From an uncultured Actinomycetes bacterium (lineage in GTDB: Bacteria > Actinomycetota > Acidimicrobiia > IMCC26256 > PALSA-610): DNA of 64,000 nt. The translations under genes and the position numbers were made by a program. The stretch covers positions 425,075 through 489,074 of the forward strand of contig CAVXFO010000007.1 of the NCBI GenBank assembly GCA_963761055.1, read 5' to 3'. Under the pieces are notes generated by a model that was not told the DNA's origin, made no database searches, and saw only the letters and a program-made list of their open reading frames with translations. Below, in pieces: positions 1 through 63,764 of the stretch; the first letter of the stretch is position 1, and each line of letters starts with the position of its first letter.

Positions 1-2
1 TC

Positions 3-1076
3 GTGGGCGGCGGGAACGTCGCCTTCGACGCGGCCCGCACCGCGCTGCGCGCGGATGCCGCCGGAACCACGCCACCCGCGCCGGTCGCGCTCGGACCGAG
101 CTCCGACGAAGACGCCCGCCGCGCGATGACCACCACCCTCGACGTGGCCCGCGCCGCGCGCCGCGCCGGTGTGGTCGAGGTCACGATCGTCGCGCTCGAA
201 TCGCCCGACGAGATCCCGGCCGATCCCGAGGAGATCGACGAAGCCGAACGGGAGGGCATCCGCATCGTCTACCGGCGCGGCCCCCATCGCTTCGTCGGCG
301 ACGCCGGCCGCGTCACCGGTCTCGAAACCGTTGCCGTCACTTCGGTCTTCGACGCCGACGGCCGTTTTGCGCCGACCTTCGCGGCCGGCACCGAAGAGGT
401 CATCGCGGCCGACACGGTCATCCTGGCGGTCGGCCAGGCCGCCGACATCGGCTTCCTCGACTCCGCGCTCATGCTCGAACGCGCCGGACCAGGTGTGAAG
501 ATCGACGCGGCGACCCTCCGCACTTCCGATCCGCGGGTCTGGGCCGGCGGCGACGTCGCGCGCGGCCCGCGCAACCTGATCGACGCGATCGCCGACGGTC
601 GACGCGCCGCGGCGTCGATCCATCGATCCCTCACCGGCCTCGCCGATCCCGCGCCGGTCGTAACCCACGAGATCCGCGTCGAGCTCCGGCCGGGCTTTCG
701 CCGGCTCGACAGCGACTACGACGCGATCCCCCGTCAGGCCATCCCCGCGACCCCCGCGGAACGCCGGGTCGGCTTCGGCGAGGTCGAGACCGGCTACGAC
801 GAGCAGCAGGCGCGACTCGAGGGGCTGCGCTGCCTCCGCTGCTTCGACAACATCGTGTTGTCACCCGAGCTGTGCATCTTGTGCGGCCTGTGCGTCGACG
901 TCTGCCCGCCCGACTGCATCACCATCGCACGCGCCGACCACGTCGGGCTCGGCACCGAACAGCAGTCGGTGCTGCTCCTCGACGAGGACCTCTGCATCCG
1001 CTGCGGGCTGTGCGTCAATCGTTGCCCTCCGGGCGCGCTGTCGATGGTTCACGCGAGGGAGCTCACGCATGGTTGA
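3..1076 (+). CDS. NAD(P)H/FAD oxidoreductase of the GltD/NfnB/SudA type with a C-terminal 2x[4Fe-4S] ferredoxin domain; 5' end cut by the window edge
   Basis: The ORF is open to the window edge. It carries the C-terminal flavoprotein signature ([28 protein letters not shown]). Two CxxCxxCxxxCP motifs follow ([24 protein letters not shown]). Its stop overlaps the next gene's ATG by 8 nt. Confidence 0.8.
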
Positions 1077-2439
1077 CGTCGACAACCGGGACCTCGAGCC
1101 GGGCCGGACCTCGGTCGATCACGGCATCACCGCGCGGGTCAAACGCAGCGACCCCTGGCGCTCGATGTTCCGGCACGCGCAGACCGATACACCGCGTGGA
1201 CGCGCCCTCCAGTCGTTCAGCAACGTCTTCCTGCACGTCTACCCGGTCAAGATCCCCAAGCGGGTACTGAATCTGCGCTACTCGCTCCGGCTCGGATTCA
1301 TCGCAGTAGTGCTGTTCGCGATCCTGCTGATCACCGGCGTCTATCTGATGTTCGTCTACACGCCGTCGGTCGGCTCCGCCTACGGCGACATGCAGAACCT
1401 GAAGACGGGCGTGGGCTTCGGTCAACTGATTCGCAACGTGCACCGCTGGGCCGCGCACCTGATGGTGCTCGTCGTCGCACTCCATCTCGTGCGCGTCTTC
1501 TACACGGGCGCGTACAAGAAGCCGCGCGAGTTCAACTGGGTGATCGGCGTGATGCTCCTGCTGGTCACGCTCGGCTTCTCGTTCACGGGCTACCTCCTGC
1601 CCTGGGACCAGCTGTCGTACTGGGCCGTCACCGTCGGCACGAACCTCGTGCACTACGTCCCGCTCCTGGGCGGACGGCTGCAGGACCTGCTGATCGGCGG
1701 CCCGCAAGTCGGCCAGAGCACCCTCCTACGCTTCTACGCACTGCACGTCGCGGTGCTGCCGTCGCTGCTCGCGCTGATGCTGACGGTGCACATCTGGCGG
1801 GTGCGCAAGGACGGCTTCGCGGTCGAGCGCAGCAGCGTCGGCGCGTTCGCCGAGGAGGGCACCGACCGTACTTCGGGCGAGCCCACCAACGCCGCGCTTC
1901 CCGCACCTGCGGCGGCCGCGATGGCGAAGGCCACACCTGATCTGTACGGCGGGCGCGTGCGCCTGCTCGGCGTCGTGGATCGCGAGTCGGTGACCGAGGC
2001 GGCCCGCCCCGTCGACGACACCGTGTTCACGTGGCCGCATCTGCTCGTGCGCCACGTCGTGGTCGCGCTCGGCACGGCCGCGGTCGTCCTCGGTCTCGCG
2101 GTCTCGTTCAGTGCCCCGCTCCGGGGCCTCGCCAATCCCAACCTCACCCCCGAGCCCGCCAAGGCGCCGTGGTACTTCGCCGGACTCCAGGAACTGCTCT
2201 CGCGGTTCGATCCCCTGATCGCGGGCATCCTCGTACCGGGCGGCGCGGTGCTCGTCCTGTTGTTGCTTCCGTACATCGATCGCAATCCCGACACGCGTGC
2301 GAGCCATCGCAAGGTCGCGATCACGTTGTTCAGTGTGTTGCTCGCGATCGCCGTGATCCTCACTGTCGTCGGCACGTTCTTCCGTGGACCCGGCTGGAAG
2401 TTCATTGCGCCGTGGACCCACTCGTACATCGAGTTCTAG
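1069..2439 (+). CDS. cytochrome b (fused b6-like N-terminal part plus subunit-IV-like C-terminal part)
   Basis: 456-aa polytopic protein. Cytochrome b motifs are present ([60 protein letters not shown]). The C-terminal part has [17 protein letters not shown]. The ATG at 1069 overlaps the upstream stop. Confidence 0.9.
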
Positions 2440-2448
2440 GAGACGGAC

Positions 2449-2946
2449 ATGGCAGATACGAGTCGACGCGACTTCCTTCGTGGGGGCTGGAAGCTCGGGG
2501 GCGCGCTGTTGATCGGCGCGGCCGGCTACACCGGTTACGAGGCATTGCGACCGCTCGCGAGCGGCGCCACCGGAGCCAAGCTGACGGTCGGGAAGGTCTC
2601 GAGCTTCGCGGCGGAGACGAGCACCTACGTCCCGGCCGGACGCATGTATGTCGTCAACACGCAGAGCTATCTCTTCGCGCTTTCGCAGAAGTGTCCGCAC
2701 CTCGGATGTCACGTTCCCTACTGCGAGAGCTCGGGGCGGTTCGAGTGCCCGTGCCACGGCTCCATCTACGACCTCGCCGGGGAGTACATCGCGGGTCCGG
2801 CGCCGCGCGGTATGGACCGCTACAACGTGAAGCTCGACGGCGACACGGTCGTCGTCGATACCGGTGTCCTCGAGACCGGCCCGAACCGGGGCGTCAAGAA
2901 TTTCCTCACGCCGCCCAAGGGTCCCGGCTGCATCGGTAAGGCCTGA
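2449..2946 (+). CDS. Rieske [2Fe-2S] protein, small Tat-exported type
   Basis: Twin-arginine motif SRRDFLRGG followed by a hydrophobic helix. Rieske boxes CPHLGCHV and CPCHGS. Starts 9 nt after the cytochrome b stop. Confidence 0.9.
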   Translation: MADTSRRDFLRGGWKLGGALLIGAAGYTGYEALRPLASGATGAKLTVGKVSSFAAETSTYVPAGRMYVVNTQSYLFALSQKCPHLGCHVPYCESSGRFECPCHGSIYDLAGEYIAGPAPRGMDRYNVKLDGDTVVVDTGVLETGPNRGVKNFLTPPKGPGCIGKA

Positions 2947-2947
2947 C

Positions 2948-3430
2948 ATGCCGCGCGAGCGTCCGCAACCGCCGCCGTTCGAGCCGGAGTGGCTCGACCG
3001 CAGCCTGAACCGTTACCTCGCGTGGGGTCTCGTCTTCATGGTCCTTCTGCTGGCCGGTTTCATTACCTACCGGGCCCGTGAGCCCGGTCTCCGGCGCGAC
3101 GCCAAGCGGGCGCAGACCACGAGCTACACGTCGATCGGGGCGCAGATCTTCGCGACGAGCTGTGCGCAGTGTCACGGGAAGAACGCGACCGGCGGCGGCA
3201 GCGCGCCGACGTTGAACTCGAGCCAATTCCTCAAGAACACGGCCGACAACCAGATCTTCGCGCTCGTGTCCGGTGGTGTGTCCGGCACCGCAATGCCCGC
3301 GTGGAACCTCGACTACGGAGGAACTTTCACCGACGAGCAGGTCCGTCAGGTCGTCACGTATCTGCGCTCGCTGGAACCGAACGCGCCGAGCATCCCCGGG
3401 TGGCGACAGGCCGCGCCGGCAAAGCCGTAG
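2948..3430 (+). CDS. membrane-anchored monohaem c-type cytochrome
   Basis: Internal ATG of ORF 2864..3430, placed 1 nt after the Rieske stop. N-terminal helix LAWGLVFMVLLLAGFITY. Single CAQCH haem motif and a distal Met region (GTAMPAW). Confidence 0.85.
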   Translation: MPRERPQPPPFEPEWLDRSLNRYLAWGLVFMVLLLAGFITYRAREPGLRRDAKRAQTTSYTSIGAQIFATSCAQCHGKNATGGGSAPTLNSSQFLKNTADNQIFALVSGGVSGTAMPAWNLDYGGTFTDEQVRQVVTYLRSLEPNAPSIPGWRQAAPAKP

Positions 3431-3437
3431 AGGTCGA

Positions 3438-4466
3438 TCACCAACGCTGGCGGGCTTCCTCCGCGAAACCCTGCAACGCGCGGAACTCGTACCGGCCGCC
3501 GTCGTCGGTGGTGACGCTCCCGGCCCAGCTGCCGAACATCTGATGCACCTCGCTGCCGGCAGCGTCCCCACCGGTGACCGTGTGCTTGTCGAATCTCGGT
3601 GTGAGCACGAGCTGCAGTTGGCCGCCGGGGTCGTCGACGCGCCACGGCTGCATCGGATGGTCCCAGTCGTAGTCCCACTGGAGCTCGCGGCCAAGCTTGG
3701 TGAGGCGGCCGTCGACGAGGAACCCGTTCTCGGTGAAGCCGGTCCCCTCGGTCCACTTGCCGCCGATCTGTAGGCCGATGACGTGGTCGCCGGACCGGCC
3801 CGCGCCGCCGCCCCAGTTCCACGTGATCTCCGACGGCCAGCGCCCGCGCCCGACGTCGAGCACGCCCCACGCGCCGTCCTCGGCGTTCGTGCCGATCGGC
3901 CGGGTGCGGTCGCCCACGACAAGTCGGCCGGCGGCCGGGCGGGCCTGGTGCTTCGACGTGAAGTTGAACACGTCGTCGCTCCACGGGATCACGACGTTGA
4001 GTGACTCGTGCCCGGGTGGTTGGAAGACCGTGACGTCGAGGCGCCCGGCGCGCCCGTCGCGTTCCGTCCACGCACCCCGGATGTGGGTGCCGGTCGCGTC
4101 GTCGTTCAGTGCCAACTCGAATCCGTCGCGCGCGACGTGCAGCGGTTCGGTGCCGGGCCGGTCGGGCAAGTGCATACCCTCGGCCCTCGGAACGACGATG
4201 CCGTTACCACCGGTCTCGCCCGTGACGAGGTCGGCCCAATACACGTCGGCCAGACCCACGTAGTCGACGTCGGAATACACGCACGACACCACGAGGTCGC
4301 CCGCGAGCACCGCCCAGTAGTCCCAGCGCTTGTTGCGACCCCACTCGCCTCCGAGGTTGGCGCGGTGCAGCGGCCGACGAGACCAACCGCGCGCGTTCGG
4401 GGCCAGCGCGCCCCCATCGGGCGTACACAGATCGACCGGCTCGGTCAGCTCCCGTTCGTGGGTCAT
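3438..4466 (-). CDS. DUF2804-like hypothetical protein
   Basis: Start taken at internal ATG 4466 (MTHERELTEPVDL...). The upstream part of ORF 3438..4907 is Arg/Ser/Ala-rich and looks non-coding. The family call is from remembered motifs (RWDYWAV, DVDYVGLADVYW) and was not searched. Confidence 0.6.
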   Translation of the reverse strand: MTHERELTEPVDLCTPDGGALAPNARGWSRRPLHRANLGGEWGRNKRWDYWAVLAGDLVVSCVYSDVDYVGLADVYWADLVTGETGGNGIVVPRAEGMHLPDRPGTEPLHVARDGFELALNDDATGTHIRGAWTERDGRAGRLDVTVFQPPGHESLNVVIPWSDDVFNFTSKHQARPAAGRLVVGDRTRPIGTNAEDGAWGVLDVGRGRWPSEITWNWGGGAGRSGDHVIGLQIGGKWTEGTGFTENGFLVDGRLTKLGRELQWDYDWDHPMQPWRVDDPGGQLQLVLTPRFDKHTVTGGDAAGSEVHQMFGSWAGSVTTDDGGRYEFRALQGFAEEARQRW

Positions 4467-5364
4467 GAAGAACTGTCTACTCGGAGCGGTACGGTGCGCG
4501 GCAGTGGATGCGATCCTGCGCAAGGCACTCGAACGCAGCCTCGGCGTCGGCATCGTGGCCGGGACGCCGGTGCGCGGGGGCGACGTCGCGGTGTCGTACG
4601 CGGTCGACCTCGACGACGGACGGCGCGTGTTCGCCAAGACGCACACGGCCGCACCGCCCGGCTTCTTCACGACGGAGGCCGCCGGGCTCGAATGGCTGCG
4701 AGCGGCTGCGGCGGTCCCGGTTCCCGAGGTACTCGCCGTCTCCGACGATGTGCCCAACCACCTCGTGCTGGAATGGATCACCGAGGGCCCGCCGGACCGC
4801 GAGACGGATCTGGCTCTCGGTACTGCGCTCGCACGCCTGCACCGGGCCGGCGCGCCCAGCTTCGGCCGCGAAGACCGGCGCACCACCGGGAGTCGCGGCC
4901 TTCCCAACGAGCCGTGCGCGACCTGGTCCGAGTTCTACGCGACCAACCGGCTACTGCCGCTCGCCAAGCTCGCGCGTGAATCCGGTGCCCTCCGCCGACC
5001 GGCGAGCGCCGCGCTCGAGGTACTCGCGGGCCGGCTCGAGAAATTCGGCGGCGCCCCCGAACCGCCGGCCCGACTGCACGGCGATCTCTGGGCCGGCAAC
5101 CGGCTCGTCGACCGCGACGCGAGGAGCTGGTTGATCGACCCGGCCGCGCACGGTGGGCATCGCGAGTTCGACCTCGCCATGATGCGCCTGTTCGGCGGAT
5201 TCGGAGCCGACTGCTTCGCCGCGTACGCCGACGCCTTCCCGCTCGCCGACGGTTGGGAGGGCCGCGTCGCCCTCCACCAGATCGCGCCTCTCGTCGTGCA
5301 CGCGATCAAGTTCGGTGGTGGCTACGTCGGCGCGGCCACGAACGCGATCAACCAGTACCGGTGA
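4465..5364 (+). CDS. fructosamine kinase family protein
   Basis: Motifs HGDLWAGN, IDPAAHGGHREFDLAMMRLFGGF. Start taken at ATG 4465 (MKNCLLG...); a later start is possible. Confidence 0.8.
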   Translation: MKNCLLGAVRCAAVDAILRKALERSLGVGIVAGTPVRGGDVAVSYAVDLDDGRRVFAKTHTAAPPGFFTTEAAGLEWLRAAAAVPVPEVLAVSDDVPNHLVLEWITEGPPDRETDLALGTALARLHRAGAPSFGREDRRTTGSRGLPNEPCATWSEFYATNRLLPLAKLARESGALRRPASAALEVLAGRLEKFGGAPEPPARLHGDLWAGNRLVDRDARSWLIDPAAHGGHREFDLAMMRLFGGFGADCFAAYADAFPLADGWEGRVALHQIAPLVVHAIKFGGGYVGAATNAINQYR

Positions 5365-7164
5365 CGGCACCGGCGCGGAACTCGAGGCCCTCGAAGTTGC
5401 CGGAGTTGCGCCACGTGTCGATGTATTCGAAGTACGCGACCGGGCCGAGCGGGTAGCCGGCCATGCCGAAGCGGGCTCGCGAGTTCAGCGGCTGGCCCTC
5501 GTTGTTGTAGTAGCCCGGGGTGCAGTCGGCATTACCGAAGAACGACAGCGGGCTGCTCTCGAGCAGATCCATCCACGCCTGCTCGGCATCGGCCGTGACC
5601 TCGACCTCGTCGGCACCCGTGTCGAGCGCATGCCGCACGACCGCTGCGATGGTGACGCCCGAATCGGCGAGGTTCGACGTGATGTTCGAGATCAGGTTGG
5701 CGCCCTGCGCGAAGCCGACGATGAAGAGATTCGGGAACCCGTGCACATGGATGCCGTGCATCGACTGCATGCCGTCGTGCCAGCACTTCGAGAGCCGGTA
5801 GCCGTCACGTCCGATGGTGTCGTAACCCGAGCGGCGGTCGTAGTCGGTACCGACCTCGAAGCCGGAGGCGAAGACCAAGCAGTCGAGGTCGTAGTGCACG
5901 CCCCCGACCCGACGCGCCCGTCGCGTCGATCCGTTCGACGCCCTTTCCGTCGGTGTCGACGAGGTGGCAGTTCGGCTCGTTGTACGCCTGCAGGTACTCG
6001 TCGTGGAAGCACGGCCGCTTGCAGAGTTGGCGGTACCACGCCTTCAGCTTCTCGGCGGTCGCGTCGTCGGCGACGACCGCGTTGCAGCGAGCGCGGATCT
6101 CGTCCATCTTCTCGTCGTCGCTCTCGAGGAATGCAAGCTCGGCGACCTCGGGCGTGAACTCCGCGCCGGCCGAGATCTTCTCGACGATCCGGTCGCGGAT
6201 GCGTTGCGAGATGTCGGTCCAGCCGTCCTTGACGAGGTCTTCGTCGGCGAAGCCGCCGGTCTGGAGGGTCGCGAAGTTCAACAGCCATTGCTTCTGCCAG
6301 CCGCACTCCAGCGTCGCGAACCACTCGGGGTCGATCGGGTGGTTGTTACGGACGTCGACCGACGACGGCGTGCGTTGGAACACATACAGCTCGCGCGCGT
6401 CGCGAGCGAGGGGCGGGATGCACTGCACCGCGGTCGCGCCGGTGCCGACGATTCCGACGCGCTTGTCGGCCAGGTTCGTCATCGGCGCGCCGGTCCAATC
6501 GCCGCCGGTGTACTCGTAGTCCCAGCGGCTCGTGTGAAAGGAGTGGCCGGCGAAGGTCTCGATCCCCGGGATGCCGGGCAGCTTGGGCTTGTTGAGCGGA
6601 CCCGTGCCCATGGCGACGAAGCGAGCCCGGAACGCGTCGCCGCGGTCGGTACGGATGATCCAGCGAGCCGCGGCCGCGTCCCAGTCGAGCTCCGTGACTA
6701 CGGTGGAGAACAGCGCCTTGTCGCGGCAAGTCGAACGTGTCGGCGATGCGCTTGCAGTGCCCGTAGATCTCGGGGGCCTTGACGTACTTCGCCGACGGCA
6801 TGTGGCCGGTCTCTTCGAGCAGCGGCAGATAGATCATGGCCGCGGTGTCGCACATCGCACCCGGGTACCGGTTCCAGTACCACGTACCGCCGAAGTCGCC
6901 GCCGACCTCGATGATCCGCACGTCGTCGATCCCCGCCTGCTTCAGGCGCGCGCCGACACACAACCCGGAGAAGCCGCCACCGATCAGCGCGACGGTGACC
7001 TCGTCGAAGAGTGGCTCGCGTTCGGTCCGCTCGGCGTAGGGATCGTCGAGCATCGAGGCGAAGCGGCCCGTCGGTTCGAGGTACTGGTCGTTGCCGTCGT
7101 GCCGCAGCCGCTTGTCGCGTTCCTCGCGGTACTTGACCCGCAGCGCGTCGTGATCCATCGTCAT
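5348..7164 (-). pseudogene. type I Baeyer-Villiger (flavin) monooxygenase, interrupted by two frameshifts as sequenced
   Basis: Three minus-strand ORF pieces join into one complete BVMO. Motifs are [34 protein letters not shown] and [13 protein letters not shown]. The junctions are FDL|[10 protein letters not shown] near 6725 and [12 protein letters not shown]|VHYDLDC near 5905. The second junction lies in a run of five G/C. Confidence 0.8.
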
Positions 7165-8595: not shown

Positions 8596-8614
8596 CGCGT
8601 CGTTCGGACACGTC

Positions 8615-8691
8615 ACGACGCCGCTGAACACGACGCCGCTGAACACAACGCCGCTGAACACAACGCCGCTGAACACAACGCCGCTGAACAC
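8615..8691. repeat. 15-bp tandem repeat, 5 copies plus 2 nt (ACGACGCCGCTGAAC x2, ACAACGCCGCTGAAC x3)
   Basis: Read directly in the 131-nt spacer between the SDR stop (8595) and the DinB-like start (8727). Copies are head-to-tail with no spacers. Confidence 0.95.
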
Positions 8692-8726: not shown

Positions 8727-9314
8727 GTGACACTCGATCCAAAGGCAGATCTGCACGAGTACCTGCAGTCGGGTCGCGCGGTAATGCTGTGGAAGCTCGA
8801 GGGGCTGTCCGAGTACGACATTCGCCGACCGTTGGTGCCGACAGGAACGAACTTGCTCGGTCTCGTCCGCCACGTTGCCAGTACCGAAACCGGTTACTTC
8901 GGGTCGGTGTTCGGCCGGCCGTTTCCGGAGCCGCTGCCGTGGATGGGGGTCGGCGAACCAAACGGCGACATGTGGGTGCGCTCCGGCGAGACCAAGGACA
9001 GCGTCGTCGAGTTCTGTCGGCGAGCTTGGGCTCACGCCGACGCGACGATCGATGTCCTTGCGCTGGAGGCCGTAGGTGAGGTGCCCTGGTGGCCGGCAGG
9101 CCGACGGCAACTCACGCTTCACCGCGCGCTGGTCCACGTGATCGTCGACATCTCTCGTCACGCCGGCCACGCCGACCTTCTTCGTGAACTGATCGACGGC
9201 TCGGTCGGCGCCGACCGCCGATGGTCCAACCTTCCGCCCGGCGACGAGGCTTGGTGGACCGGCTACCGCGACCGGGTCGAAGCCGCCGCCCGCAATGCAG
9301 GCGGCGTGACGTAG
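8727..9314 (+). CDS. DinB-family (DUF664-like) protein
   Basis: GTG start. Four-helix-bundle DinB-like pattern (LWKLEGLSEYDIRRP, LLGLVRHVASTE, ISRHAGHADLLRELIDG). Confidence 0.7.
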   Translation: MTLDPKADLHEYLQSGRAVMLWKLEGLSEYDIRRPLVPTGTNLLGLVRHVASTETGYFGSVFGRPFPEPLPWMGVGEPNGDMWVRSGETKDSVVEFCRRAWAHADATIDVLALEAVGEVPWWPAGRRQLTLHRALVHVIVDISRHAGHADLLRELIDGSVGADRRWSNLPPGDEAWWTGYRDRVEAAARNAGGVT

Positions 9315-13458: not shown

Positions 13459-13483
13459 GGCGGCGGCTCCCTGAGTTTTCGAC

Positions 13484-13520
13484 GGGCTGAGTTACGAAGG
13501 GCTGAGTTACGAAGGGCTGG
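13484..13520. repeat. 15-bp tandem repeat GGGCTGAGTTACGAA, 2 full copies plus a 7-nt partial
   Basis: Read directly in the LysM-lexA divergent spacer. A related CTGAGTT lies just upstream at 13471. Confidence 0.85.
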
Positions 13521-36301: not shown

Positions 36302-38806
36302 TCATTCCTTTTCTTGCATCTCCTGTAACTCTTCGACGCTCATCAACACCGAGCGGGCCTTCGATCCCTCCGACGGACCGACCACGCCCCGGCGTTCGAG
36401 CAGATCCATCAGGCGCCCGGCCCGGGCGAACCCGACCCGCAGCTTGCGCTGCAGCATGCTGGTGGAACCGAGGCCGCTCGTGACGACGAGCTCCATCGCT
36501 TCGGCCAACAGGTCGTCGGTCTCGTCCGCGTCGCCCCGTGAACGACTTCCGGGTGCGTCGGAACCCTGCACGCCTTCGACGTACTGCGGCGCGATCACCT
36601 GACGCTTCCAGTCCGCGACGACCTTGCGCACGCAGTCTTCGTCAACCCATGCACCCTGGATGCGGTCGGCGCGACTCGACGACGCGTTGAGCAAGAGCAT
36701 GTCGCCCTTGCCCACGAGCTTCTCCGCACCACCCTGGTCGAGGATGACGCGGGAGTCGGCGAGCGTGCTCACGCTGAACGCGATCCGGCTCGGCACGTTG
36801 GCCTTGATCACACCGGTGATGACGTCGACCGACGGCCGTTGCGTCGCGATCACGAGGTGGATGCCGACGGCCCGGGCCATCTCCGCGAGCCGGCAGATGC
36901 TCGTCTCCACGTCGCGGGCCGCGACCATCATGAGGTCGGCGAGCTCGTCGACCACGACGACGATGAACGGCAGGCGTTCGTATGCCTTCCCCGTGTCGGG
37001 ATCGGGATCGTCCTCGGTCGGGATGTCGCCCTTGTCGTACATCGCGTTGTAGCCCGTGATGTCGCGCACGCCGATGTCGGCCAGGAGGTCGTATCGCATC
37101 TCCATCTCGCGCACGGCCCAGTCGAGCGCGTTCGCGGCTTTCTTCGGATTGGTGACGACCTCGGTGAGGAGGTGCGGCACGTTGTTGTACTGGCCCATCT
37201 CGACCCGCTTCGGGTCGATGAGGATCAGGCGCACCTCGTCGGGAGTCGTCCGCATGAGGATCGACGTGACGATCGTGTTGATGCAGCTCGACTTGCCCGC
37301 ACCGGTCTGACCGGCGATCAGCACGTGCGGGAACGTCGCGAGGTTCGCGAACACGGCTCGGCCCACGATGTCGCGACCCATGCTCACCTCGAGCGGGGAC
37401 TTCGCCTTTTTCGCTTCCGGGCTACTGAGAATGTCGCCGAGCGTCACGATCGGGCGCATCTTGTTGGGGACCTCGACGCCGATCGCGCTGCGCCCCGGGA
37501 TCGGGGCGAGGATGCGCACGTCGTGGCTCGCCATCGCGTACGCGATCTCTTTCGACAGGCTCGTGACCTTGTTGACCTTCACGCCCGCCGCGAGCTCCAA
37601 CTCGTAGCGGGTCACTGTCGGTCCGACCGTCGCGTCGATCAGCCGGGCGTCGACCCCGAACTCGCGCATCGTCGCCTCGAGCACATCGCCACCCTGTTTG
37701 ACCATGCGGGTGTCGATCTCGCGCTTCTCGCTCCGCTTGAGGAGATTCGTGGCGGGCAGCTTCCAGACGACCTTCGGTACCGGGCGGGGGTGTTCGTCCT
37801 CGCCTCCGGCCGCTTCCTCGTCGAGTTCCTCGTCGGCTTCGTCCTCCTCTTCGCCGTCCTCTTCCTCGTATTCCTCTTCCTCGTCCTCTTCCTCGTACTC
37901 CTCCTCGGCGTACTCGCCTTCTTCGTCCTCTTCGCCTTCGTCTTCTTCGTACTCTTCGTACTCGTCGTCGGCTTCGAGCTCGTCGTCGGCAAGCTCCTCC
38001 TCCGCGACCAGGTCGAGCACGGGATCGTCAGCCGACTGGTCGAACAGCACCGCGCGCCGGGTCGACACCTCGGGCGCGACGGTGGTGGTCGACCCGTCGG
38101 CCCGTTCCGACGGCAGGGTCAGGATCGTGCGCGCCTGCCGCCCGACGAAACGACCGCCCGTCACGACCGACTGCGCGATCTGACGGATACCGGTGCCGAC
38201 GACGAGCAACAGCCCGAGCGCACCGACGGCGACGAGCACGATGGCCGCGCCCGCGCGGCCGAGCCCGGCCCGCAGCGGCGCGCCCACCATTGCGCCGACG
38301 AGTCCGCCGGCGTGGCGCAACGGCTCGAGCGATCCGGCGGCGGTCTTGGCCCGGGCGAGATGAAAGCCGCCGACGGCCGCGCCGACCACGAGGACCAGGC
38401 CGAGCCCGAAACGCAGGCCGCGTCGGGCGACCTCGTCGTCGTCGTCGGTGCGGCTCTGACCGACCGCGGAGGCCGCCGCGGCCAACGCCGCGAACGGGAT
38501 GAGGACCTTACCCCGCCCGAGGAGGTCGGCCGCGAGGGCGTCGATGCCCCGCCCGATGGGTCCGACGACGTCGGAGAACATCGCAAGCAGGCTGAGCAGC
38601 CCGAAGACGGCGAGCCCGATCGCGAGCACGTCGATGCGGTGATCAGCCAGCTGCTCGGAGAATTCGTCCCGCCACGCAGATCGGGTTTGGCGGGCACGAG
38701 TTTTGACCGCGCTCTCGACCGCTTCCGTCCGCGCGCGGACTTTGACTGACGGCGCGAAGCCATACCCCAAAACTAACACCGGCCACTCTGACCCCACAGG
38801 GATCAT
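36302..38806 (-). CDS. ftsK: DNA translocase FtsK with a long acidic linker
   Basis: N-terminal membrane helices, an E/D/Y-rich linker, a motor domain (IAGQTGAGKSSCIN, LPFIVVVVDELADLMM) and a C-terminal gamma wHTH (STSMLQRKLRVGFARAGRLMDLLE). Start at ATG 38806 is tentative. Confidence 0.92.
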   Translation of the reverse strand: MIPVGSEWPVLVLGYGFAPSVKVRARTEAVESAVKTRARQTRSAWRDEFSEQLADHRIDVLAIGLAVFGLLSLLAMFSDVVGPIGRGIDALAADLLGRGKVLIPFAALAAAASAVGQSRTDDDDEVARRGLRFGLGLVLVVGAAVGGFHLARAKTAAGSLEPLRHAGGLVGAMVGAPLRAGLGRAGAAIVLVAVGALGLLLVVGTGIRQIAQSVVTGGRFVGRQARTILTLPSERADGSTTTVAPEVSTRRAVLFDQSADDPVLDLVAEEELADDELEADDEYEEYEEDEGEEDEEGEYAEEEYEEEDEEEEYEEEDGEEEDEADEELDEEAAGGEDEHPRPVPKVVWKLPATNLLKRSEKREIDTRMVKQGGDVLEATMREFGVDARLIDATVGPTVTRYELELAAGVKVNKVTSLSKEIAYAMASHDVRILAPIPGRSAIGVEVPNKMRPIVTLGDILSSPEAKKAKSPLEVSMGRDIVGRAVFANLATFPHVLIAGQTGAGKSSCINTIVTSILMRTTPDEVRLILIDPKRVEMGQYNNVPHLLTEVVTNPKKAANALDWAVREMEMRYDLLADIGVRDITGYNAMYDKGDIPTEDDPDPDTGKAYERLPFIVVVVDELADLMMVAARDVETSICRLAEMARAVGIHLVIATQRPSVDVITGVIKANVPSRIAFSVSTLADSRVILDQGGAEKLVGKGDMLLLNASSSRADRIQGAWVDEDCVRKVVADWKRQVIAPQYVEGVQGSDAPGSRSRGDADETDDLLAEAMELVVTSGLGSTSMLQRKLRVGFARAGRLMDLLERRGVVGPSEGSKARSVLMSVEELQEMQEKE

Positions 38807-60659: not shown

Positions 60660-60757
60660 ATTCTCGCACTCCGGGCGCCGGACCCACTATCCGCCGTCAC
60701 GAACACGCTCACGAACCGGTGCGGCCCGGCTCCAACCCGGTCGTCCAGCCCCGCCCC

Positions 60758-60842
60758 ATCCCGATCCGGCGTGCATCCCGATCCGGCGTGCATCCCGATC
60801 CGGGCGGCATCCCGAAACCGACGGCATCCCGATCCGGCGTGA
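60758..60842. repeat. 17-bp tandem repeat, 5 copies (ATCCCGATCCGGCGTGC x2, then three diverged copies)
   Basis: Read directly in the infB-DUF503 spacer. Copies are contiguous with no spacers. Confidence 0.9.
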
Positions 60843-60948: not shown

Positions 60949-63764
60949 TCAGACCCGGGCGATCTCTCGTTCCTCGAACGTCTCGATCACGTCACCGGCC
61001 TTGAGGTCCTGGTAGTTCTCGAGCCCGATACCGCACTCGAACCCATCGCGGACTTCACGCACGTCGTCCTTGAACCGGCGCAGCGTGGCGATCGATCCCT
61101 TCCAGATGATCGTTCCCTCGCGTAGGAAGCGGACCTTCGAACCACGCGTGATCACGCCACTCGTGACGTAGCAGCCGGCGACCTTGCCGACGCGCGGGAC
61201 CGAGAAGACCTCGCGCACTTCGGCATCCCCGGTGACGACTTCCTCGTACTCGGGCTTGAGCATCCCGACGAGAGCGTTGCGGACGTCGTCGAGCACGCCG
61301 TAGATGACCTCGTAGGTTCGGATCTCGACGCCTTCGCGCTCGGCCACTTCGCGGGCCTTGCGGTCGGGACGCACGTTGAAGCCGATCACAGTCGCGTTCG
61401 ACACGGCCGCGAGGTCGAGGTCGGACGCCGTGATCCCACCGACACCGCGGTGCACGAACGACAGGCGGACCTCGTCGTGCTCGGCGTCGAGCTTCTTCAG
61501 CGCGTCGGTGAGCGCCTCCAGCGAACCGTTGACGTCGGCCTTCACGATGAGGTTCAACGTGGCGACCTCGCCCCGTTGGACCATCGCGAAGATGTCCTCG
61601 AGCCGGGCACCGCCGCCCAGCATCATCGGGTTGCGTTGTGCCGCCACCTTGCGCCGATGCGTGCGCGCCTCGGCAACCGTGCGCGCGACCTTGTCGGAGG
61701 GCGCGACCCGGAGCTCGTCACCCGCGAGCGGCACGTCGTCGAGACCGAGCACTTCCACGGGAACCGACGGACCGGCCTCGCTGACCTGCAGGCCCTGCTC
61801 GTCGAACATCGCGCGGACGCGGCCCCAAGCCGGGCCGGCCACGATCTGGTCGCCGACCCGCAGCGTGCCTTCCTCGACGAGGGCGGTCACGACCGGACCA
61901 CGGCCCTGGTCGAGGTACGACTCGAGCACGTAGGCCTTGGCCGGGCGCTTCGGGTTGGCGACGAGGTCCTCGGCGATCTCGGCGTCGGCCACGAGCAACA
62001 GGGCGTCGAGCAGTTCCTCGACACCTTGCCCCGTCGGCGCAGCGACGTCGAGGACGATCGTGTTCCCGCCCCACTCCTCGGGCACCAACTCCTGCTCGGT
62101 GAGCTGCTGGCGCACGCGGGTCGGGTCGGCGTCTTCCCGGTCGGTCTTCGTCACGGCGACGACGATCGGCACTTCCGCGGCCCGGGCGTGGTTGATCGCC
62201 TCGACAGTCTGCGGCATGACACCATCGTCGGCCGCGACCACGAGGATCGCGATGTCGGTGATCTGCGCGCCGCGCGCGAACGCATTGCGGTGAACGCCTC
62301 GTGACCCGGTGTGTCGATGAACGTGATGCGACGACCGTCGCGCACCACCTGGTACGCCCCGATGTGCTGGGTGATGCCACCGGCTTCACCCGCGACCACG
62401 TTCGCGTGCCGGATGCGGTCGAGCAGCGTCGTCTTTCCGTGGTCGACGTGACCCATGACGGTGATGACCGGCGGGCGCGGCTCGAGCAGCGCGTCGTCGT
62501 CCTCGTCGTCGGCGGTGAGCAGCGCGATCAGCTCGATCTCCTGTTCACTCCCCGGCTCCACGATCAGGATCTGGGCACCGAGCTCCTCGGCGATGAGCTC
62601 GATCATCTCGTCGGGCAGCGACGCCGTCGCCGTCATCATTTCGCCGGCCGCGAAGAGGATCCGGACGAGGTCGGCGGGCGTGCGGTTCAGCTTGGGCGCG
62701 TACTCCTGGATGGTGCTGCCGCGCGAGACGACGATCTCGCCTTCGGGAACGGGCGCATCGGCCGGGGTGAGCCGCTGCGAAGCCGGTTCGAGCTCGGCGC
62801 GGTCGCGACGACGCTTCTTGCGCCGGCGCTGCGGGGGTCCGCCGGGTCGGCCCCGGCCACCGCCGGGACCACCGAAGCCGCCGGGTCCGCCACCAGGGCC
62901 ACCACCGGGACCACCCCGGCCGCGTCCGGGCGCGCCGGTACGGGCGCCACCGGGACCACCGGCTGAACCACCGGGACCGCCGCCGGGCGTGTATCCACCT
63001 CCGCCACCACCGCGCGGACCGCCGAAGCCGCCCCCACCGGGGCCGCCGCGGGCGCCGCCGCCGCCACCGCCGGGACCGGGCCGGGGGCCGCCGGGACGAC
63101 TTCCGAAACTGGTGCGGGGGCCGGGAGGGGGCGGCGGGACCTTCCCGGGCGGCGGCGGGATCGCCTTGCCGCTGCCGGACGTGGGACGCGACGGGGCCGC
63201 GGGCGGTGGGGTCGACGGCGCACGCGCGGCCGGCCGGTCCTCCACCGAAGGCGTGGGTCGGGTGCCGGGTGCGGCCGAGGGAGCTGACGCGGGCGCGGCA
63301 ACGGGCGGCGCTACCGGCGGAGCCGACGCGGGCGCGACCGTCGCCGCGGCCGCGGCCGGGCGTTCCACCGGCGCGGGCGGAGCCGGCATCGCGGGCGCGG
63401 GCGACGAGCGCACCACCCGGTGCGAGGACCGGACCACCGCGGGCTTGGCCTCTTCGACCGCGGCGGACGCGGCGGCCGGCTCGACGGGCCGGCTCGACGG
63501 CGCGATCGTCGTCACCGGGGCGGGCGCGGCGGGCGGGACTTCCGGAACGGGCGGGGCCGGGGCGGGCTCGGGCTCGACGACGGGCGCCTTTTTCAGCCCG
63601 CGTGAGTCGGCCAGGCGGCGGACGCGGTCGGCCGAGGGCTCGTCGATGCTCGACGAGTGGCTCTTGACGCCGATCTTGAGCTCGTTGGAAAGCTCGACCA
63701 CGACGGCGTTGTCAACGCCGAGCTCTCGTGCCAGCTCGTAGACCCGAATCTTCTTCGTCGCCAA
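60949..63764 (-). pseudogene. infB: translation initiation factor IF-2, one frameshift as sequenced
   Basis: The N-terminal part (TTG start, [17 protein letters not shown], Pro/Gly-rich region, [24 protein letters not shown]) is in ORF 62151..63764. The remainder ([24 protein letters not shown]...) is in the frame of ORF 60949..62241. The junction is near 62265-62285. Confidence 0.92.

Follow-up and report, generated by a model that had tools for sequence, protein, structure and literature searches.

NAD(P)-oxidoreductase-containing Rieske/cytochrome b complexes were reportedly described from anammox bacteria by Kartal and colleagues in 2013. In Kuenenia, the complexes encoded by Kuste4569-4574 and Kustd1480-1485 include an NAD(P) oxidoreductase subunit, and the generation of NAD(P)H from quinol by the anammox complexes has the status of a proposal (Hauser et al. 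2025, PMC12954380). According to de Almeida (2016), as quoted in PMC5600118 and PMC12954380, the Kuenenia flavoprotein co-migrates with the complex. A wider frame is offered by the APWY clade of cytochrome b, defined by Kao & Hunte (2014, PMC4122944), in which the Acidimicrobidae are listed with one member, the split form of Ilumatobacter coccineus, alongside Planctomycetes, delta-Proteobacteria, Nitrospirales and Chloroflexi. This clade probably corresponds to the cytochromes b that Dibrova et al. (2013/2017, PMC5600118) place in subfamily G, for which they note the company of NAD(P)-binding Fe-S proteins "in many other cases". A further system, ExtOPQ of Geobacter, comprises the Rieske protein, cytochrome b and membrane protein of the extHIJKLMNOPQS cluster, which codes for multihaem cytochromes, a porin and a rhodanese-like protein and lacks a flavoprotein (PMC5877670).

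We examined a comparable locus at positions 3-3430 of a 64,000-nucleotide stretch of DNA from an uncultured soil actinobacterium of the Acidimicrobiia (the window, to which all coordinates below refer, every feature being on the + strand). Here four tightly packed, co-directional genes code, in this order, for a flavoprotein, a cytochrome b, a Rieske protein and a monohaem cytochrome c (ORFs 3..1076, 1069..2439, 2449..2946 and 2948..3430). Re-reading of the coordinates reproduced the packing given in the original prediction, namely an 8-nt overlap followed by gaps of 9 and 1 nt. The overlap lies in the junction cATGGTTGAc, which joins the cytochrome b ATG (1069-1071) to the flavoprotein TGA (1074-1076) and is preceded by AGGGAG ~10 nt upstream; the cytochrome b TAG is followed by 9 nt containing GGAG and then the Rieske ATG at 2449, and a single nucleotide separates the Rieske TGA from the cytochrome c ATG at 2948. 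For the last gene this ATG, which yields the 160-aa product as called in relatives, was used in place of the GTG at 2864 given by the mechanical ORF list.

The flavoprotein gene starts upstream of the window, which holds its C-terminal 357 codons (3..1076, residues 250-606 of 606); the full-length protein of the same genome (P0121, 606 aa) is 100% identical over the window part. Pfam (Pyr_redox_2, 1e-11; two Fer4, 3e-15; also Fer4_7 and Fer4_10) and NCBIfam (PRK12771, 189 bits, matched through the model end) identify it as a GltD/NfnB-type FAD/NAD(P)-binding iron-sulfur flavoprotein, and the best PDB matches of a relative's flavoprotein are NfnA 9n5u (299 bits), 9bov and 8oh5_C (268), NfnB 5jca_L (221) and GltD 2vdc_G (203), in agreement with the predicted GltD/NfnB-type protein with an extra C-terminal 2x[4Fe-4S] domain. 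That domain (831..1028) comprises a CLRC motif and two CxxCxxCxxxCP motifs, with 10 Cys residues invariant in alignments A1 and A2. With the GltD, NfnB, SudA and Stn modules the protein shares strong sequence matches and the same combination of Fer4_20 and two Rossmann domains, but it differs from them in this added domain and in its location inside a Rieske/cytochrome b operon. We rejected its identification as a plain GltD or NfnAB subunit, since no gene for a partner large subunit (GltB) or for NfnA lies within 8-10 kb in relatives and all GltD/NfnAB equivalog models fall far under cut-off, the query being the partial fragment in the window. Within the NAD(P) domain, the second dinucleotide-binding motif (6..38), an 11-residue stretch forming the predicted NAD(P)H site, is invariant in alignments A1 and A2. 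It is followed by a 39-residue insertion (54..170, alignment A2) that the flavoproteins of Acidimicrobiia and Acidobacteriota have in common and the anammox homologue lacks, its second half, a 15-residue stretch, being invariant in alignment A1. The end of strand beta-2 (189..203) reads VALES, with an invariant Glu315 (alignments A1 and A2), where the anammox flavoprotein has VYRRT; this one motif hints at the use of NADH rather than NADPH.

The second gene (1069..2439) codes for a 456-aa cytochrome b, and the presence of both Cytochrome_B (1.4e-48) and Cytochrom_B_C (1.5e-11) domains in its ORF bears out the predicted fusion: of seven predicted TM helices, four make up a b6-like part and three a subunit-IV-like part, and a variable linker (residues 261-280) joins the two. 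The best solved-structure match is b6, over residues 68-250 (175 bits, with Rhodobacter cytochrome b at 138 and actinobacterial QcrB at 91-95), and the C-terminal part matches TIGR01156 (4.5e-6). Based on an alignment of 77 sequences and on the alignment with b6, the four bis-His ligands of haems bP and bN (H125, H139, H226 and H241; 1435..1797) are invariant or near-invariant, H226 being present in 76/77, with a gap in the remaining one. Five residues after H241 the window protein has Arg, as in b6, at the position where bc1 carries the Qi His. Where the CxGG haem-cN motif would lie, it reads RLGF (1288..1299); Arg is found here in 59 of the 77 sequences, and Cys only in 10 split-type loci and the anammox protein. 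Because this Cys is missing, a covalent haem cN is predicted to be absent. The Qo-site motif APWY (2164..2175), common to the anammox subunit IV, is embedded in KAPWYF in 77/77 sequences, which places the predicted module in the APWY clade. A further feature is the n-side motif FLHVYPVK (1228..1251), in which His56 is present in all 77 aligned sequences; residues 41-60 around it show a conservation of 0.90, equal to that of the haem helices. In the anammox alignment His56 matches His43 and Arg246 matches Arg247. Hauser et al. (2025, PMC12954380) predict that Kuste4571 His43, like Kustd1481 His62, ligates an additional haem b between the monomers, on the dimer axis. The same type of motif occurs in a Firmicutes cluster (L088) without an adjacent flavoprotein, and it is therefore not specific to flavoprotein-linked clusters.

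The remaining two products also took the forms predicted for them. The Rieske [2Fe-2S] protein (2449..2946, 165 aa; Pfam Rieske, 9e-11) carries the Tat motif SRRDFL (2461-2478) and the cluster-binding motifs CPHLGC (2692-2709) and CPCHGSIY (2746-2769); the Ser of CxCHGS is universal, and the window protein has both the Ser and the Tyr. Its best PDB matches are two Kuenenia Rieske proteins, 9rk3 and 9rk4. The 160-aa cytochrome c (2948..3430; Pfam Cytochrome_CBB3/Cytochrom_C, 2e-11) combines an N-terminal membrane anchor (TM helix 3014-3070) with a single haem motif, CAQCH (3161-3175), and a Met ligand region (3290-3304). Exactly one CxxCH is present in the cytochrome c of 65/66 related loci, and in one of the loci (L063) the cytochrome c is fused to a cupredoxin.

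The suggested relation to the anammox clusters with a GltD-like subunit is upheld by comparison with an anammox locus of the Kuste4569-4573 type (L084), against which the flavoprotein aligns over its full length with 36% identity (E 4e-112), the b6 part of the cytochrome b with 47% and its subunit IV part with 40%, PAKAPWYF being present in both; the Rieske matches to 9rk3 and 9rk4 point the same way. The two systems share a flavoprotein in which an N-terminal Fer4_20 and an FAD/NAD(P) domain are followed by CL(R/K)C and two ferredoxin motifs, a b6-type cytochrome b in which four His bind the haems and the subunit-IV part has APWY, and a small Rieske protein with a Tat signal. The Ser and Tyr beside the Rieske cluster, of which the Ser would form the H-bond, make the window protein a candidate for the high potential known from Kuenenia. 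They differ in that the window cytochrome b is fused, has three rather than five helices in its subunit IV part, and lacks the CxGG Cys and hence haem cN; in a monohaem cytochrome c and a blue-copper protein, as against the hexa-/octahaem cytochromes and HAO-like protein of anammox bacteria, no multihaem p-side cytochrome subunit being found in the window cluster or the linked clusters of relatives; in gene order; in the 39-aa insertion and the VALES for VYRRT of the NAD domain; and in the host, an apparently aerobic actinobacterium without an anammoxosome. Judged by these sequence comparisons, the predicted complex is a simpler, aerobic, streamlined homologue of the Kuste4569-4573 and Kustd1480-1485 complexes.

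Other known systems fit less well. The original prediction had called the locus a b6f/Bacillus-like module other than qcrCAB; the second part stands, while "Bacillus-like" proved imprecise, the APWY clade being the appropriate label. Cyanobacterial/chloroplast b6f and Firmicutes b6c resemble the window module in the four His ligands and the subunit-IV-like C-terminal part and, as noted, provide the best structure match, but they have the haem cN Cys, a cytochrome f or a cytochrome c-fused subunit IV, and PEWY/PDWY instead of APWY, and b6 lacks the N-terminal extension with His56 that the fused window protein possesses. We accordingly rejected cytochrome b6f, given the fused cytochrome b, the absence of the cN Cys and of cytochrome f, and APWY in place of PEWY. 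The QcrCAB complex of Mycobacterium and Corynebacterium, of the same phylum and with the same general role of a menaquinol-oxidising Rieske/cytochrome b complex, was rejected on NCBIfam scores far under cut-off (QcrB 124 against 500, QcrA 30 against 275 and QcrC 37 against 200 bits); it further differs in its dihaem rather than monohaem cytochrome c, its Rieske protein of ~400 rather than 165 aa, its PDWY motif and its gene order. ExtP (266 bits) and ExtQ (56) of Geobacter are the highest-scoring NCBIfam models for the window cytochrome b, but both lie under their cut-offs (290 and 150) and multihaem ExtKLMNS neighbours are lacking, so that ExtOPQ was likewise rejected. The earlier surveys of the clade describe neither the fused form of the Acidimicrobiia and its conservation throughout the class, nor the partners (cupredoxin and small TM protein) or the His56 motif.

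We then considered the neighborhoods of related loci. The order flavoprotein-cytochrome b-Rieske-cytochrome c recurs in all 67 Acidimicrobiia species loci with enough upstream sequence, down to ~50% cytochrome b identity; the arrangement of the four genes is far beyond chance. The translational coupling given in the original prediction is borne out, the 8-nt overlap of flavoprotein and cytochrome b genes being found in ~30 of the 52 loci measured (median junction spacings -8, 8 and 1.5 nt). Linkage of the flavoprotein to the cluster extends to Acidobacteriota, Armatimonadota and one unassigned contig, and the orthologous clusters retain the flavoprotein. Extension upstream places the flavoprotein outside any gltB operon: in relatives a blue-copper (cupredoxin) lipoprotein and a small 2-TM protein are encoded there instead, and within 8-10 kb upstream or downstream there is no partner gene of the gltB, nfnA or formate-dehydrogenase-like kind. 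We tentatively assign the four genes to a conserved operon of six, coding for the blue-copper lipoprotein, the small 2-TM protein, the flavoprotein, cytochrome b, Rieske protein and cytochrome c, of which they would form the distal end.

The cluster occurs across Acidimicrobiia families and in every lineage of the class that was sampled, and cytochrome b identity exceeds 82% among the best 120 database matches, as would be expected of a housekeeping complex III. The module could indeed be an ordinary menaquinol:cytochrome c/cupredoxin reductase with a normal Q cycle, the flavoprotein being a merely co-transcribed soluble oxidoreductase or a regulatory/overflow valve. Related APWY clusters, namely L088 of Firmicutes, the second cluster of L086 and Geobacter ExtOPQ, work without a flavoprotein gene, and genome surveys detected no other complex III in some Acidimicrobiia (PMC7771536, PMC12008989), both of which are consistent with this reading. 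We nevertheless consider it unlikely: the co-migration cited for the Kuenenia flavoprotein (de Almeida 2016, in PMC5600118 and PMC12954380) argues for a true subunit, the strict adjacency and the 8-nt overlap are kept over deep divergence across four phyla, no other partner gene lies near the flavoprotein, and the cN Cys and bc1-type Qi His are missing.

Instead, we cautiously propose, at somewhat less than even confidence, that the locus encodes a menaquinol-oxidising APWY-clade Rieske/cytochrome b complex carrying a cytoplasmic NAD(P)-linked flavoprotein subunit, through which the low-potential electron would be passed to NAD(P)+. The host quinone we take to be menaquinone, as in Actinomycetota generally. 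Menaquinol would be oxidised at the APWY Qo site, one electron running downhill from the high-potential Rieske cluster to the membrane-anchored monohaem cytochrome c, the cupredoxin and a terminal oxidase. The other would pass via haems bP and bN to an n side lacking haem cN and the bc1-type Qi histidine, and from there, probably via an extra haem b held between the two His56 residues of the cytochrome b dimer, into the flavoprotein, whose four Fe-S clusters and FAD would relay it to NAD(P)+, the Glu of VALES suggesting NAD+. Gene content, motifs, homology with the anammox subunits, the conserved order with its translational coupling and the missing cN cysteine are read from the sequences, whereas we infer that the flavoprotein is physically attached, that a further haem is present, which way the electrons run and which nucleotide is used; an AF2 monomer model was too low in confidence for use (pLDDT 52). 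Because the Kuenenia Rieske proteins have potentials of +303 and +335 mV (PMC12954380), reduction of NAD(P)+ by the low-potential branch would be energetically feasible with menaquinol. Several points count against the proposal: NAD(P)H production has the status of a proposal in the anammox bacteria too (PMC12954380), the His56-type motif recurs in L088 with no flavoprotein beside it, the choice between NADH and NADPH depends on a single motif, a functional Qn site is compatible with the sequence, and the hosts, with complex I, have the appearance of aerobic heterotrophs that would not obviously need quinol to drive NAD+ reduction.

The same anatomy would fit either direction of electron flow. 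The flavoprotein might oxidise NAD(P)H and feed haem bN or an n-side quinone pocket through its Fe-S chain, producing menaquinol or amounting to an NAD(P)H:cytochrome c/cupredoxin reductase, by analogy with the proposed FNR-b6f cyclic link. For modules of the GltD/NfnB type, NAD(P)H is normally the electron donor. In loci L071-L082 a free-standing 138-aa ferredoxin, homologous to the C-terminal iron-sulfur domain of the flavoprotein, takes the place of the latter ahead of cytochrome b6, pointing to a general port for electrons on the n side, and FNR is cited as co-purifying with b6f (in PMC5600118). This direction seems improbable to us, however, as ~250 mV would be wasted without proton pumping though complex I is present (nuoA adjoins the split-type cluster), an argument also made in PMC12954380; furthermore, it leaves the high-potential Rieske signature in a menaquinone organism unexplained and, with haem cN absent, offers no obvious Qn site for quinone reduction.

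The linkage of the cupredoxin to the cluster, which is constant, and the capacity of some Acidimicrobiia to oxidise Fe(II) would suit a third direction, in which a high-potential donor delivers electrons via cupredoxin and cytochrome c to a pmf-driven Rieske/cytochrome b complex working uphill towards quinone and/or NAD(P)+ for lithotrophy, like Acidithiobacillus petI. Operation in reverse has been proposed for APWY complexes (Kao & Hunte, PMC4122944). We hold this to be very unlikely here: the lineages with the cluster come from ordinary soils, peat and wastewater and extend beyond lithotrophs, the neighborhoods inspected revealed no genes for lithotrophy, and the sequence carries no indication of direction.

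Returning to menaquinol oxidation coupled to NAD(P)+ reduction, a wider and rather doubtful reading is that this is the only complex III of the Acidimicrobiia and operates without a Q cycle, the low-potential electron passing via the inter-monomer haem b and the four Fe-S clusters to NAD+, with the reduced NAD re-oxidised by complex I in an "NAD cycle". If true, such a cycle would harvest the large gap between menaquinol and a copper/oxygen branch of high potential, and soil actinobacteria would widely respire oxygen by the mechanism that has been proposed in anammox bacteria. A complex of six subunits from aerobes in culture would then allow this mechanism to be tested.

All four genes of the cluster lie on the forward strand. 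The flavoprotein gene, within which the window edge falls, is present as its C-terminal part (3..1076, a frame-3 ORF of 357 residues), and is followed by those for cytochrome b (1069..2439, 456 aa), the Rieske protein (2449..2946, 165 aa) and cytochrome c (2948..3430, 160 aa, with an ATG at 2948 where the mechanical ORF list gives a GTG start at 2864). The tight packing put forward in the original prediction, namely an 8-nt overlap, a 9-nt gap and a 1-nt gap, is borne out by the sequence at all three junctions: the cytochrome b ATG at 1069, with AGGGAG upstream, precedes the flavoprotein TGA at 1074-1076; the cytochrome b TAG is followed, after 9 nt including GGAG, by the Rieske ATG; and a single nucleotide separates the Rieske TGA from the cytochrome c ATG. 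Neither internal promoter-like sites nor convincing terminators were found in window 1-5500, and across the whole window there are no Rfam families, nor does any of the four genes have a paralogue there.

Domain searches recovered Pyr_redox_2 and two 4Fe-4S motifs (Pfam) in the flavoprotein, together with an NCBIfam PRK12771 match running to the end of the model, a motif of 15 residues (not shown) and two copies of CxxCxxCxxxCP. In cytochrome b, the Cytochrome_B and Cytochrom_B_C domains (Pfam and NCBIfam) are accompanied by the haem-ligand residues H125, H139, H226 and H241 and seven predicted TM helices, with a variable, gap-rich linker (residues 261-280) between the b6-like and subunit-IV-like parts. 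The Rieske protein combines a Rieske domain match with the motifs SRRDFL, CPHLGC and CPCHGSIY, and the last protein is a class-I cytochrome c by Pfam and NCBIfam, with one TM helix, a single CAQCH and AMPAW.

The next gene after cytochrome c lies on the opposite strand and codes for a DUF2804 protein; it is followed by a fructosamine-kinase-like gene (together window 3438-5364; 83% and 85% identical, respectively, to their homologues in the related locus L001), after which synteny with the closest relative stops. On the minus strand at 5350-7100, the homologue match of a flavin-monooxygenase (Baeyer-Villiger type) gene runs across three frames (-2, -3, -1), reflecting either a pseudogene or assembly indel errors. 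A near-perfect tandem repeat at 8614-8691, with a 15-nt unit in 5.2 copies and 98% matches, lies within several overlapping, doubtful mechanical ORFs and translates as repeated VFSGV in one of the minus-strand frames; a plus-strand ORF begins shortly after it, at 8727. Further tandem repeats occur at 13471-13519 (15 nt x 3.2), 37829-37976 (27-nt), 60757-60841 (17 nt x 5) and 62839-63093 (42- and 33-nt, of a Pro/Gly-rich coding type), and G+C reaches its maximum (0.74) in the final 2 kb.

The full-length flavoprotein (P0121, 606 aa), encoded on a 921,674-bp contig, agrees with the window fragment at 100% identity; its additional N-terminal part carries Fer4_20-type Cys motifs and an FAD-binding GGGPAG. 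When an 84% identical orthologue from locus L006 was used as query, the closest solved structures were NfnA-like 9n5u (299 bits), 9bov, Stn 8oh5_C, NfnB 5jca_L and GltD, with the C-terminal part matching polyferredoxin and NuoI-type domains. Membership in GltBD or NfnAB was rejected as the partner genes are absent nearby: no gltB, nfnA or formate-dehydrogenase gene was found in the relatives' neighborhoods of the cluster. An AF2 model of the full-length protein (pLDDT 52, pTM 0.46; alignment of 41 sequences, at least 75% identical) was discarded. In several long-read metagenome-assembled genomes (MAGs) the flavoprotein gene is frameshifted and called as fragments (L001:8187-10005, L002:8190-10008, L083:9541-11304), and such frameshifts may hide it from automated annotation; the short-read loci L006 and L084 (the latter an anammox locus) were taken as references.

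Against PDB sequences the cytochrome b scores highest with b6 (175 bits), followed by proteobacterial cytochrome b (138) and actinobacterial QcrB (91-95), and the actinobacterial Qcr NCBIfam models score far under cut-off for the window proteins, in agreement with the earlier view that this is not the canonical actinobacterial qcrCAB. A rough neighbor-joining tree of the b6 core, computed without support values, sets all compared cytochrome b sequences apart from spinach b6. The Qo motif APWY is invariant in 77/77 aligned sequences, and the protein accordingly belongs to the APWY clade defined by Kao and Hunte 2014, which already lists a split Ilumatobacter cytochrome b and of which, according to those authors, no member has been characterized (PMC4122944). 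At the position of the haem-cN cysteine (CxGG) the fused type has Arg. The Geobacter Ext system was considered because ExtP is the top NCBIfam hit for cytochrome b, and was rejected as the score falls under cut-off and the Ext cluster has no flavoprotein partner to ExtOPQ (PMC5877670).

We then examined conservation in one genome per GTDB species, which yielded 486 cytochrome b relatives and 80 retained loci, the closest (82-96% identity) coming from Acidimicrobiia MAGs. The order flavoprotein, cytochrome b, Rieske, cytochrome c is kept in every one of the 67 fused-type loci with upstream sequence, down to about 50% cytochrome b identity, while three Acidobacteriota loci have the order flavoprotein, Rieske, cytochrome b. 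With heuristically picked start codons, the median junction spacings across the 52 loci with complete genes are -8, 8 and 1.5 nt, and about 30 of these loci share the -8 overlap. The flavoprotein is thus neither a stray from an unrelated operon such as one with gltB, nor missing from orthologous clusters, both of which figure in the grounds that the original prediction had named for abandoning it. An ordinary Q-cycle complex, with the flavoprotein merely a co-transcribed enzyme or an overflow valve, would have to accommodate this conserved translational coupling and the absence of both known n-side quinone-site signatures, and we regard it as unlikely. Acidimicrobiia-type clusters with 69-86% identity were also observed on contigs labeled as Burkholderiales, Gemmatimonadales or Jiangellaceae MAGs (L017, L038, L045, L050), labels that are probably binning errors.

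The content upstream of the window was deduced from relatives with 82-96% cytochrome b identity rather than from the window's own genome. In these, two genes always stand ahead of the flavoprotein gene (L006:5025-6194; same region in L003-L061). One codes for a blue-copper lipoprotein with ligands arranged as H...C-x4-H-x4-M, in which two or three tandem cupredoxin hits are frequent; the other, whose stop codon shares 1 nt with the flavoprotein start, codes for a membrane protein of 77 aa with two helices. The operon probably comprises six genes, two of them beyond the window's left edge. A more distant group of Acidimicrobiia encodes the cupredoxin downstream, or as a fusion with cytochrome c. 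One such fusion (L063:9739-10608) has a cupredoxin-like C-terminal part with the copper-ligand motif CHVEGHYEAGM and no Pfam copper-domain hit, and L065 probably encodes another; the L063 fusion supports passage from cytochrome c to a copper protein as the high-potential exit.

Among PDB entries, the top matches of the Rieske protein are the Kuenenia soluble domains 9rk3 (Kustd1480, 64.5 bits) and 9rk4 (Kuste4569, 61.8 bits) over residues 45-140, as against 56 bits with b6f PetC in the cluster-binding part only. The 9rk4 segment used as query retrieved the intact Kuste4569-4573-type anammox locus L084, and comparison with it upheld the suspected likeness to anammox flavoprotein-containing clusters: P0121 is colinear with the anammox flavoprotein over residues 1-597 (36% identity, E 4e-112), including the YDA(I/V)PRQ linker, CL(R/K)C and both ferredoxin motifs, while cytochrome b residues 23-249 match cytochrome b6 (47% identity) and residues 307-453 subunit IV (40% identity, with PAKAPWYF identical). 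Furthermore, the invariant His56 (FLHVYPVK) aligns with anammox His43 (WLHLHPAK) and Arg246 with Arg247, and conservation around His56 equals that of the haem helices. In the anammox protein these residues are taken to be the ligand and the propionate partner, respectively, of a predicted extra dimer-axis haem b, from which the path would lead to four Fe-S clusters and FAD (Hauser et al. 2025, PMC12954380). Unlike its anammox counterpart, the window cytochrome b is fused, has a shorter subunit IV part and lacks the cN Cys, and a monohaem cytochrome c and cupredoxin stand in place of multihaem proteins. The flavoprotein differs in its NAD domain, where a conserved insertion of 39 aa, common to Acidobacteriota, is not in the anammox protein, and where VALES (with invariant Glu315) replaces VYRRT, a change that we tentatively read as specificity for NADH over NADPH.

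Twelve more Acidimicrobiia loci (L071-L082) have split b6 and subunit IV genes, with the cN Cys (CxGG) in 10/12, i.e. every one that could be aligned, and a large cytochrome c that is dihaem in 6/6 countable loci. L072 and L078, the two loci read completely, encode a 290-291-aa Rieske protein, the large cytochrome c and, in the flavoprotein's place, a free-standing 138-aa 2x[4Fe-4S] ferredoxin homologous to its C-terminal domain, without a GltD-like part; in L078 (7052-12662) the order is a 150-aa TM protein, ferredoxin, cytochrome b6, subunit IV, Rieske, dihaem cytochrome c and then nuoA. This replacement suggests that the ferredoxin domain may be the piece contacting cytochrome b. Clusters of flavoprotein, Rieske, b6 and subunit IV genes also occur in a Fimbriimonas MAG (Armatimonadota, L087), in L086 (a contig without taxon) and, with a hexahaem cytochrome c, in Acidobacteriota (L074). 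Dibrova et al. had earlier recorded that NAD(P)-binding Fe-S proteins accompany the cytochrome b of subfamily G "in many other cases" (PMC5600118). L086:1-9856 holds two Rieske/cytochrome b clusters in tandem, one with flavoprotein and N-side His, the second with a fused cytochrome b and neither. The His56-type motif is found in every flavoprotein- or ferredoxin-linked cytochrome b examined and is missing from the flavoprotein-less L086 paralogue, making it a suggestive marker of the flavoprotein link; it is also present in the flavoprotein-less Firmicutes cluster L088, and is therefore not diagnostic.

Ever since Rieske/cytochrome b complexes with an NAD(P) oxidoreductase subunit were recognized in the genomes of anammox bacteria, which grow slowly and are genetically intractable, they have posed a puzzle; to our knowledge, no study has demonstrated the proposed bifurcation from quinol to NAD(P)H. 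The reading that we favor, tentatively and in line with the anammox model, is that the complex may be a menaquinol:cytochrome c/cupredoxin oxidoreductase, in which the low-potential electron from menaquinol would reach NAD(P)+ and the other would pass to cytochrome c/cupredoxin. This reading draws on the homology of the electron-path elements, the always-linked copper acceptor, the missing n-side signatures, the conserved coupling, and a Rieske signature of the high-potential kind (with the universal Ser and, in this protein, also Tyr) in an organism presumed to use menaquinone. Following the symmetry argument that Hauser et al. take from Bergdoll et al., a high-potential Rieske protein with menaquinone would entail b haems of sufficiently low potential (PMC12954380). 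However, a physiological need for such NAD(P)+ reduction in an aerobe is not evident, and the anammox model is itself only a proposal. The opposite direction, with NAD(P)H feeding electrons into the complex via the flavoprotein, would use the same homologous path and seems to us doubtful; pmf-driven reverse flow from a high-potential donor, for which the linked copper protein would be at hand, we consider improbable.

Complexes of this type were known before, albeit uncharacterized; new are the Acidimicrobiia variant, fused, without cN and with monohaem cytochrome c and cupredoxin, and, at the level of sequence, its class-wide conservation with translational coupling and the His56/His43 equivalence. 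In Acidimicrobiia genome papers complex III is described as missing or incomplete, or cytochrome b alone is listed, which leaves the complex effectively undescribed in this class; the present findings explain those reports (PMC7771536, PMC12008989). The fused type occurs in MAGs labeled Aquihabitans, Iamiaceae and Ilumatobacteraceae, and the APWY cytochrome b of the cultured Ilumatobacter coccineus is recorded as split (PMC4122944). A minimal complex, with a fused cytochrome b lacking haem cN, a monohaem cytochrome c and a cupredoxin, is conserved across an entire class of Actinomycetota common in soil, freshwater and wastewater, and none of the proposed elements of the electron path is missing from it, the His that would ligate the putative extra haem included. 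The Acidimicrobiia hence offer a simpler system, in which the function could be tested in lineages with cultured aerobic members.
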